Shown here: positions 35,322 through 41,224 of the stretch, piece by piece | Layout of the letters: every line of letters begins with the position of its first letter | Position numbering within the stretch: position 1 is the first letter of the stretch | Assembly (NCBI RefSeq): GCF_024502345.1 | Contig: NZ_JALDNN010000001.1 | Length of the DNA stretch: 64,000 nucleotides | Origin: Escherichia coli | GTDB lineage: Bacteria > Pseudomonadota > Gammaproteobacteria > Enterobacterales > Enterobacteriaceae | Direction: 5' to 3' (one strand) | Made by a program: the position numbers and the translations under genes | Notes under the pieces: model-generated | The model's input: only the letters and a program-made list of their open reading frames with translations | Database searches by the model: none | Told to the model about the DNA's origin: nothing

Positions 35322-36887
35322 TTATGCAGTTTTGGTGCGAATCAGGTAGTCAAAAGCACTCAGAGAGGCTTTGGCACCTTCGCCAGTGGCGATGATGATC
35401 TGCTTGTACGGAACCGTCGTACAGTCACCCGCTGCGAACACGCCTTTGACGTTGGTTTCGCATTTCGCATCAATGATAATCTCGCCCATGCGGTTACGTT
35501 CGACTGCGCCTTCCAGCCAGTTGGTGTTCGGCAGCAGACCAATCTGGACGAAAATACCGGCCAGTTCGATGTTGTGAATATCGCCGCTGACACGATCTCG
35601 ATATTCCAGACCAACGACTTTGCTGCCGTCGCCTTTCACTTCCGTGGTTTGCGCATTCAGAATAATGTCGACGTTTTTCAGGCTGCGCAGTTTGTCCTGC
35701 AGCACCTGGTCGGCTTTCATTTCTGGCGCAAATTCCAGCAGCGTTACGTGCTCAACGATACCCGCCAGGTCGATTGCCGCTTCCACGCCGGAGTTACCGC
35801 CGCCGATAACCGCTACGCGTTTGCCTTTAAACAGCGGGCCGTCGCAGTGCGGGCAGTAGGTCACGCCTTTGGTGCGATACTGATCTTCGCCCGGAACGTT
35901 CATGTTGCGCCATTTTGCTCCGGTCGCCACGATAATGCTGCGTGCTTTCAGTACCGCGCCAGAAGCTGTTTCAATCTGATGCAGACCACCTTCAACTGCT
36001 GCTGGGATCAGTTTGCTGGCGCTCTGGCTGTCGATCACATCAACGTCGTATTCATCAACGTGAACTTTCAGTGCGCCTGCCAACTTCTGCCCTTCAGTCT
36101 TCGGTACAGAAATGTAGTTTTCGATATCAACGGTATCGAGGATCTGACCACCAAAACGTTCGCCCATCAGACCGGTACGGATGCCTTTACGTGCGGAGTA
36201 AATTGCTGCCGCTGCACCCGCCGGGCCGGAACCAACGATTAATACGTCATAAGCATCACGCTTGTTCAGCTCTTCTGCCGCACGTTTTTCCGCGCCAGTA
36301 TCAATTTTGGCAACGATTTCAGTCAACGTCATGCGGCCCTGACCAAACTCTTTCCCGTTTACGAACACTGCCGGAACGCCCATCACGTTACGATCGGTGA
36401 TTTCGTTCTGGAAGGTGCCGCCATCAATTGCAGTGTGCTTGATGCGCGGGTTCAGTACGCTCATCAGGTTCAGCGCCTGCACCACGTCCGGGCAGTTGTG
36501 GCAAGAGAGCGAGTAATAGGTTTCGAATTCAAAATCACCGTCAATATGGCGAATCTGCTCCAGCAGAGACTGCGCTTCTTTCGACGGATGACCACCGGTC
36601 CACAGCAACGCCAGTACCAGCGAGGTGAACTCATGGCCCAGCGGGGAGCCTGCAAAACGTGGCCCCTGGTTGGAACCTGGGTTGGTGATCAGGAAAGACG
36701 GCTTACGCACTGGCAAGCTGTTATCTTCTTTAAAGGTGACTTTGTCTGACAGTTCTGCGATTTCAGCCAACAGTTCCTTGATTTCTGCCGATTTAGCGCT
36801 GTCATCCAGCGTGGCAATTAACTCAACAGGCTTGGTCAATTTCTCAAGGTAAGCCTTGAGTTGAGTTTTCATATTTGTGTCGAGCAT
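35322..36887 (-). CDS. ahpF: alkyl hydroperoxide reductase subunit F
   Basis: 521 aa from [17 protein letters not shown]; CxxC redox motifs; FAD/NAD Rossmann motifs. Confidence 0.97.
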
Positions 36888-37131
36888 GTTTATCTCCTGG
36901 GCTTTAAACATCATCATGCAAGCGGCCTCTACGGCTACCTGGATGCAGCTTGCATCATGGTGCGGGGAAGAAAATCGGGTGCCGCAGCACCCGAAGAATT
37001 AGGTGAATTTCCGAAGTATTTCGCGTCAGAGCAAGGCGGCTAGCCTGTGAATCCCCGGGAGCTTACACAAGTAAGTGACCGGGGTGAGCGGGCGACGCCA
37101 ACGCCGCTATGGCGTGAAAGACGAAGGAAAT

Positions 37132-37695
37132 TTAGATTTTACCAACCAGGTCCAGAGACGGAGCCAGAGTTGCTTCACCTTCTTTCCATTTAGCCGGGCA
37201 AACTTCACCTGGGTGAGAAGCTACGTACTGTGCTGCTTTGATTTTACGCAGCAGGTCAGACGCGTCACGGCCAATGCCTTCAGCGGTAACTTCGATTGCC
37301 TGGATGATACCCTGCGGGTCAACAACGAAGGTCGCACGGTCAGCCAGACCTTCATCTTCACGCATGTTGTCGAAGTTACGGGTCAGGGCGCCAGTCGGGT
37401 CGCCGATCATCGCATATTTGATTTTAGCGATGGTTTCAGAGCTGCTGTGCCATGCTTTGTGGGTGAAGTGAGTATCGGTAGATACTGCGTATACGTCTAC
37501 GCCCAGTTTCTGCAGTTCTTCGTAGTGGTCAGCAACGTCACCCAGTTCGGTCGGGCATACGAAAGTAAAGTCAGCCGGGTAGAAGAAGAAGACGCTCCAG
37601 CGGCCTTCGGTATCTTTTTCGGTGATTTCGATGAATTCGCCGTTTTTGAATGCCTGGTTTTTAAAAGGTTTAATTTTGGTGTTAATCAAGGACAT
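37132..37695 (-). CDS. ahpC: alkyl hydroperoxide reductase subunit C (peroxiredoxin)
   Basis: 187 aa [28 protein letters not shown]...; peroxidatic Cys motif FTFVCPTE. Confidence 0.97.
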
Positions 37696-38066
37696 CTATA
37701 CTTCCTCCGTGTTTTCGATGAGATGTAAGGTAACCAATTTTTACCGATTCGGCTAATGCGTTTCCATTATCAAATCGATAAGTTTTACCTTACAACCTTC
37801 GTAAGACAACTTTGTGAACTTTGCACCGCCAGCGGCGATAAAAAGTAAAATGGCCCCCTTTCCAGGTGACCGTGTAATCTGAACTACCCTTTGGTATCTT
37901 CAGCGCCTGCCTGCAGGCTGAGGTGTTGCCCTTACAAATGCAACAACGACATGGATTACAACACCCTCATAAACAAAGGGCAATCACCTGATCTAAGCTC
38001 TTACCTATGACAGTGATAGGTTATGCCTTTTACTCGACTTTTGCACTGACTGAAAAGGACAAATTA
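37696..38066. promoter_or_regulatory. ahpC / dsbG divergent control region (expected OxyR-dependent ahpC promoter)
   Basis: Position only; OxyR regulation of ahpCF is established knowledge, the site itself was not pinpointed. Confidence 0.3.
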
Positions 38067-41186: not shown

Positions 41187-41224
41187 AAACACAACCCGCT
41201 ACGGGGGAGACTTACCCGAAATCT

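Follow-up and report, generated by a model that had tools for sequence, protein, structure and literature searches.

ERIC/IRU elements were reportedly described by Sharples and Lloyd in 1990 and by Hulton et al. in 1991, the latter presumably with the copy between ahpC and ahpF among its original examples, and short as well as long variants are said to have been described by Wilson and Sharp in 2006. They are MITEs of about 127 bp, imperfect palindromes with an ERIC1R/ERIC2 core that lie at transcribed intergenic sites, and TA flanks have been described for elements of this type (review, PMC3184786). Intercistronic RNase III sites such as those of pflB-pflA and metY-nusA-infB are intergenic helices of about 20 bp that are cut in vivo and in vitro, and after the cut the two parts of a polycistronic mRNA decay independently of each other (Gordon et al. 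2017). Intercistronic attenuators separate an upstream gene that is highly expressed from a downstream gene of the same operon that is expressed less, by means of a GC-rich hairpin and a U-tract, with in vivo 3' ends falling within the U-tract. In the ahpC-ahpF spacer analyzed here, the order along the transcript is an ERIC/IRU element, an intrinsic terminator, an RNase III hairpin, and the ahpF ribosome-binding site. We consider it probable that the first three are independent RNA-level modules on the ahpCF sense transcript, and that termination and processing together favor ahpC.

Both genes are on the minus strand of the window, the 64,000-nt stretch of Escherichia coli DNA that was analyzed. 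ahpC occupies 37132-37695 (187 aa plus a TAA stop at 37134-37132) in the ORF list, and RefSeq records annotate the same protein as ahpC; ahpF occupies 35322-36887 (521 aa, with its ATG at 36887-36885), with the start that RefSeq annotates. The spacer between them, window 36888-37131, measures exactly 244 nt, in agreement with the roughly 245 nt of the original prediction, which had been made from the sequence alone. It differs by one base, at window 36931, from that of E. coli K-12 MG1655 (NC_000913.3, 639509-639752). The sense-strand spacer RNA is predicted to fold at -86 kcal/mol, compared with -71.7 +/- 4.7 kcal/mol for 200 dinucleotide-preserving shuffles (z = -3.03; 0 of 200 as low), which upholds the earlier claim that the region is structured. 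The best match of the spacer among 5,426 complete E. coli genomes is 99.6%, so none of them is identical to this strain over the interval. The base at 36931, in the apical part of hairpin 2 (see below), is T in this genome and C in K-12 and in all other sequences aligned.

The ahpF Shine-Dalgarno (SD) sequence GGAG (36894-36897, minus strand) lies 6 nt upstream of the ATG and 3' of hairpin 2, and the alignment shows this region kept as AGGAG/AGGGA. An N-terminal extension of ahpF was considered and rejected as coding. The ORF begins at 36917, inside hairpin 2 and 30 nt upstream, and would add 10 residues; the mechanical call of a 531-aa AhpF arises because ATGATGATG (window 36888-36917, minus strand), in the 3' arm of hairpin 2, is in the ahpF frame and stop-free up to the true start. 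The RefSeq start is MLDTNMK. Since an in-frame TAA interrupts the extension in Enterobacter sp. Bisph1 (locus L010), the 10 residues are, on comparative grounds, an unconserved annotation trap.

An intrinsic terminator, putatively a leaky attenuator, was located by a terminator scan at 36968-36994 (minus strand; spacer positions 138-164). Its stem-loop, UCGGGUGC-UGCG-GCACCCGA (36994-36975, minus strand), has an 8-bp stem with six GC pairs and a 4-nt loop, with a predicted folding energy of -16.6 kcal/mol for the hairpin, and is followed by the U-tract UUUUCUU (36974-36968, minus strand), which is interrupted by a C. A pair resembling ggtgcggg/cccgcacc had been proposed previously; a repeat of this kind does exist, but it was mis-specified, and the true one is the perfect 8-nt repeat tcgggtgc/gcacccga at 36975-36982 and 36987-36994. 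Curated Term-seq 3' ends in K-12 fall at 639668 (two growth conditions) and 639670 (a third condition) in Supplementary file 1 of Adams et al. 2021 (PMC7815308). These correspond to spacer positions 160 and 162, or window 36972 and 36970, inside the U-tract, and the sequence printed with them is that of this hairpin. Supplementary file 2 of that study lists no Rho-termination region at the terminator (PMC7815308). Rho-dependent termination was also set aside as a candidate when an apparent '6395' match in the Rho table proved to be a fragment of an unrelated number. The arrangement of a GC-rich hairpin, U-tract, and in vivo 3' ends is that of other intercistronic attenuators, which it differs from in that it shows no sign of control by a ligand, a protein, or the ribosome and so looks constitutive.

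To look at the spacer across species, we compared ahpC loci from 80 species-representative genomes. No ahpC-ahpF spacer in this set (about 70 species) is shorter than 68 nt, and those of 68 to 79 nt (Erwinia, Pantoea, Brenneria, Providencia, and Arsenophonus) contain little beyond the terminator and the ribosome-binding site. A simple scan of 22 Enterobacterales spacers recovered a hairpin followed by a U-tract in 20 of them. Genera that lack hairpin 2 (Erwinia, Pantoea, Brenneria, and Arsenophonus) have a longer U-tract (6-8 U), and in Leclercia (locus L018) the U-tract is degenerate. Across 19 Enterobacterales species, the 7-bp core stem has undergone three double compensatory changes (C-G to T-A, G-C to C-G, and G-C to A-T) and eight one-sided changes to G.U, with no broken pairs and with 15 different loop sequences. 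All of the wobbles are G.U on the sense strand and would be A.C mismatches on the other, and this strand preference indicates an RNA structure in the ahpCF transcript. Terminator-like hairpins that are not homologous to this terminator were found in 23 of 48 spacers of other Proteobacteria, a figure that stands without a chance control, and ahpCF operons in general may have kept a terminator between their two genes by convergence. In Pseudomonas, Variovorax, Snodgrassella, and Marinobacterium (within loci L029-L087), the ahpC-ahpF spacers carry GC-rich hairpins with U-tracts that are unrelated to it.

The RNase III substrate, hairpin 2, lies at 36908-36963 (minus strand; spacer positions 169-224), as delimited by an inverted repeat and by folding. 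The repeat atgcaagc/gcttgcat that had been noticed earlier is real and forms part of a 21-nt inverted repeat (36909-36929 and 36942-36962, 81% complementary), for which folding predicts, at -23 kcal/mol, a helix of about 20 bp (20 pairs) interrupted by single-nucleotide bulges. A new RNase III site at K-12 639695, listed as 'Intergenic (ahpC-ahpF)' and cut in vitro by the purified enzyme, has been reported (Gordon et al. 2017, PMC5371410). This coordinate corresponds to spacer position 187 (window 36945) and falls within the 5' arm of hairpin 2, inside the atgcaagc/gcttgcat hairpin. In the same study, the half-life of ahpC mRNA was about 14 min in the wild type and about 6 min in an rnc mutant while that of ahpF was unchanged, and the authors proposed that after the cut ahpC mRNA is left with a protective hairpin at its 3' end (PMC5371410). 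The original prediction of partial termination or a processing site therefore finds a match of both kinds in published K-12 data, as 3' ends and an RNase III cut within the interval map onto the spacer structures. The helix length, intergenic position, and cleavage in vivo and in vitro, with uncoupled decay of the two mRNA halves, are those of the pflB-pflA and metY-nusA-infB sites; in contrast to these, the ahpC-ahpF cut stabilizes the upstream product rather than triggering its decay, and the hairpin is restricted to one clade.

That clade comprises Escherichia, Citrobacter, Enterobacter, Leclercia, and Superficieibacter. Across 15 clade sequences, 95.3% of cells in the hairpin 2 alignment are paired. 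In the main helix, 9 of 18 pairs never vary and only one true compensatory pair is present, and the conservation could reflect something besides pairing. Comparative support for the structure is modest, and it is the experimental evidence that carries the argument.

The ahpCF operon has three promoters, all upstream of ahpC (Conway et al. 2014). Transcripts initiated there would pass through the ERIC element and reach the terminator, where a fraction of the polymerases would stop independently of Rho, generating abundant monocistronic ahpC mRNA with structured hairpins at its 3' end. The remaining polymerases would read through to produce ahpCF mRNA, and RNase III would cut hairpin 2 of this transcript, separating the cistrons so that they decay independently. 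The ahpC half, ending in the protective terminator and ERIC hairpins, would be the longer lived. Termination and processing would together render ahpC mRNA both more abundant and more stable than ahpF mRNA, in keeping with AhpC decamers being in excess of AhpF dimers. We infer that termination is partial, and that its net effect with processing is to set the AhpC:AhpF ratio; the earlier quantitative claim that the spacer sets ahpC above ahpF would follow from this scheme.

The mapped 3' ends could also originate without termination. If polymerases read through in full and RNase III cut hairpin 2, 3'-to-5' exonucleases might remove about 25 nt and halt at the GC-rich hairpin, whose only role would then be that of an exonuclease block. 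No more than 25-27 nt separate the mapped 3' ends from the RNase III site downstream, Term-seq cannot tell termination from processing, and Gordon et al. propose a stabilizing hairpin 3' of ahpC after cleavage (PMC5371410). However, a pure exonuclease block needs no U-tract, and the U-tract is conserved across Enterobacterales and reaches 6-8 U where spacers of 68-79 nt have no hairpin 2 to be cut. A conserved U-tract that is longer in genera lacking hairpin 2 argues for genuine termination. Further, ahpC mRNA persists in the rnc mutant with a 6-min half-life (PMC5371410). Trimming as the sole source of the 3' ends is thus unlikely, and the ends are better explained by termination.

The largest palindrome of the spacer, in its ahpC-side half, had gone unnamed in the original prediction. 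It is a full-length ERIC/IRU repeat of 127 nt at 37005-37131 (minus strand; spacer positions 1-127), directly 3' of the ahpC stop codon. Its central core (37047-37090, plus strand) agrees at 41 of 44 bases with the reverse complement of ERIC1R joined to ERIC2, primer sequences that were confirmed in the literature; the search returned one match, with none expected by chance. The imperfect palindrome consists of 27-nt terminal arms (37006-37032 and 37106-37132, 74% complementary) and 14-nt central arms (37053-37066 and 37071-37084), and the element alone folds as one long hairpin at a predicted -44.6 kcal/mol. Of 5,426 complete E. coli genomes, 5,425 match a 131-nt segment containing it, at 41,224 places in all (E <= 1e-3); the median is 8 places per genome and the highest number 15, and genomes without an ERIC at the ahpC site still have matches elsewhere at 60-90% identity. 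The length, imperfect palindrome, core, transcribed intergenic location, dispersal in many copies in E. coli, and short internally deleted variants at the same site are those of the described family, and there is no essential difference. As to the TA flanks described for ERIC-type MITEs, the TA in the TAA stop of ahpC adjoins the left end, and TCACCTA follows the right end without a TA next to it; no clean TA target duplication can be seen. The spacer is indeed long for an operon, as had been claimed, but the cause had not been recognized; it is unusually long because of this 127-nt insertion, which makes up about half of it.

A search of window 36500-37500 against Rfam in E-value mode recovered no family at its gathering score. 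Matches below threshold to V_AS5, a Vibrio antisense RNA (22.8 bits, threshold 96, E = 0.04), and CssrA, a Shigella sRNA (19.4 bits, threshold 93), lie within 37007-37177 on the plus strand, antisense to the operon, and overlap the ERIC core. These two models probably contain ERIC-like repeat sequence, and for this reason the matches were not used as evidence.

The ERIC element is polymorphic at this site in E. coli. Approximately 1,762 of 5,426 genomes (32%), including K-12, have the full element and a spacer of 244 nt; about 1,114-1,123 (21%), including O157:H7, have no ERIC and a spacer of 128 nt; and the remainder (about 47%), including ST131, carry a short ERIC with 74 internal nucleotides deleted and a spacer of 170 nt, in several SNP sub-variants. 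The ahpC-distal 114 nt of the spacer are essentially invariant across all three alleles. Just outside the element, the flank reads GTTCCGCAATCGCG in empty sites and TCACC in filled ones, differing in length as well (14 nt versus 5 nt). Because of this difference the 128-nt allele is not a clean unoccupied site and may not be a simple never-occupied one. Full copies at the same position are present in Citrobacter werkmanii, Enterobacter sp. Bisph1, Superficieibacter electus, and one MAG; short copies occur in E. albertii and another MAG, and Citrobacter sp. FP75 has a 15-nt remnant. Among five orthologous full copies from five genera, the palindrome has been kept by compensatory changes at 7 of 36 pairs. 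The copy in Superficieibacter electus (locus L021, 2065-2189) is 94% identical to the E. coli copy at window 37005-37131, while for the same pair of species identity is 67% at the third codon positions of ahpC and 69% in the remainder of the spacer; the Citrobacter and Enterobacter copies are 75-81% identical to that of E. coli. The high identity of the Superficieibacter copy could reflect strong constraint, independent insertions of consensus-like elements at one hot spot, or horizontal exchange.

One could regard the ERIC element itself as the main regulator, with its long hairpin stabilizing or destabilizing ahpC mRNA, for example as an entry site for RNase E or RNase III, and with the alleles differing in ahpC expression. 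According to a review, De Gregorio et al. 2005 showed for Yersinia that an ERIC downstream of a gene can introduce an RNase E site and so set off decay of the mRNA upstream. The compensatory upkeep of the palindrome across five genera and the disparity between the Superficieibacter copy and the ahpC third codon positions would agree with such a function, although one would expect a transposable-element relic, too, to keep its palindrome at the level of DNA. Against it, the mapped 3' ends and the mapped RNase III site are both outside the element, and its absence or internal deletion in so many E. coli genomes implies that it is not required for ahpCF function. In partition-function folding, the pairing probability of the terminator is about 1.0 and the accessibility of the SD is almost equal with full, short, or no ERIC. 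Interference of the ERIC with the terminator or the SD was accordingly dropped as a candidate; the predicted folds show no effect on the former and almost none on the latter, and the element appears structurally autonomous. We therefore judge a main regulatory role of the ERIC to be improbable.

Termination at the conserved hairpin and processing at hairpin 2 remain the preferred source of the bias toward ahpC, with the ERIC as a tolerated repeat insertion in the ahpC 3' UTR, given that a fifth of E. coli genomes have none here. It is dispensable at the locus, since E. coli lineages carry a full copy, a short copy, or none, and it may add 3' protection to ahpC mRNA. A stronger version, in which the element is no neutral passenger, seems doubtful to a similar degree as the regulatory role: the full, short, and absent alleles would give heritable differences in 3'-end protection of ahpC mRNA or in terminator efficiency, and selection on the RNA hairpin would explain the conservation of the full copy across genera. 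If this were true, the AhpC:AhpF ratio or peroxide tolerance would vary among K-12 (full), ST131 (short), and O157:H7 (none).

A separate ahpF promoter in the spacer, with independent ahpF expression and incidental hairpins, would suit the length of the spacer and the TTGCAT hexamer in the conserved block GCTTGCATGATGATGTTT, but it is very unlikely and was set aside, as a crude sigma-70 scan found no sense-strand sigma-70-like site within the spacer, no -10-like hexamer can be read at the proper spacing from TTGCAT, the three known promoters are all upstream of ahpC (Conway et al. 2014), and genera with spacers of 68-79 nt have only the terminator and ribosome-binding site and no room for one.

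Every component of the spacer is already known from publications (the ERIC from 1990-91, the RNase III site from 2017, and the Term-seq 3' ends from 2021), and a full-text literature search for ahpC-ahpF together with ERIC, Term-seq, or an internal terminator found nothing further. The present analysis assembles these three known elements and corrects the idea that the length of the spacer is itself functional; half of it is a repeat insertion that is missing in many E. coli strains. The spacer offers a compact textbook example of the way in which a single operon may yield unequal amounts of two subunits, with a leaky terminator and an RNase III cut that would favor the abundant peroxidase AhpC over the reductase AhpF.

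A further sense-strand Term-seq 3' end is present on the other side of ahpC, at K-12 638796 in all three conditions (Adams et al. 2021, PMC7815308). Its sequence context, GGAAAGGGGGCCATTTTACTTTTT, matches the window exactly within 37834-37894 (minus strand), placing the end at about window 37844, 149 nt upstream of the ahpC start codon. Attenuation within the dsbG-ahpC intergenic region, or a short transcript upstream, may account for this end.
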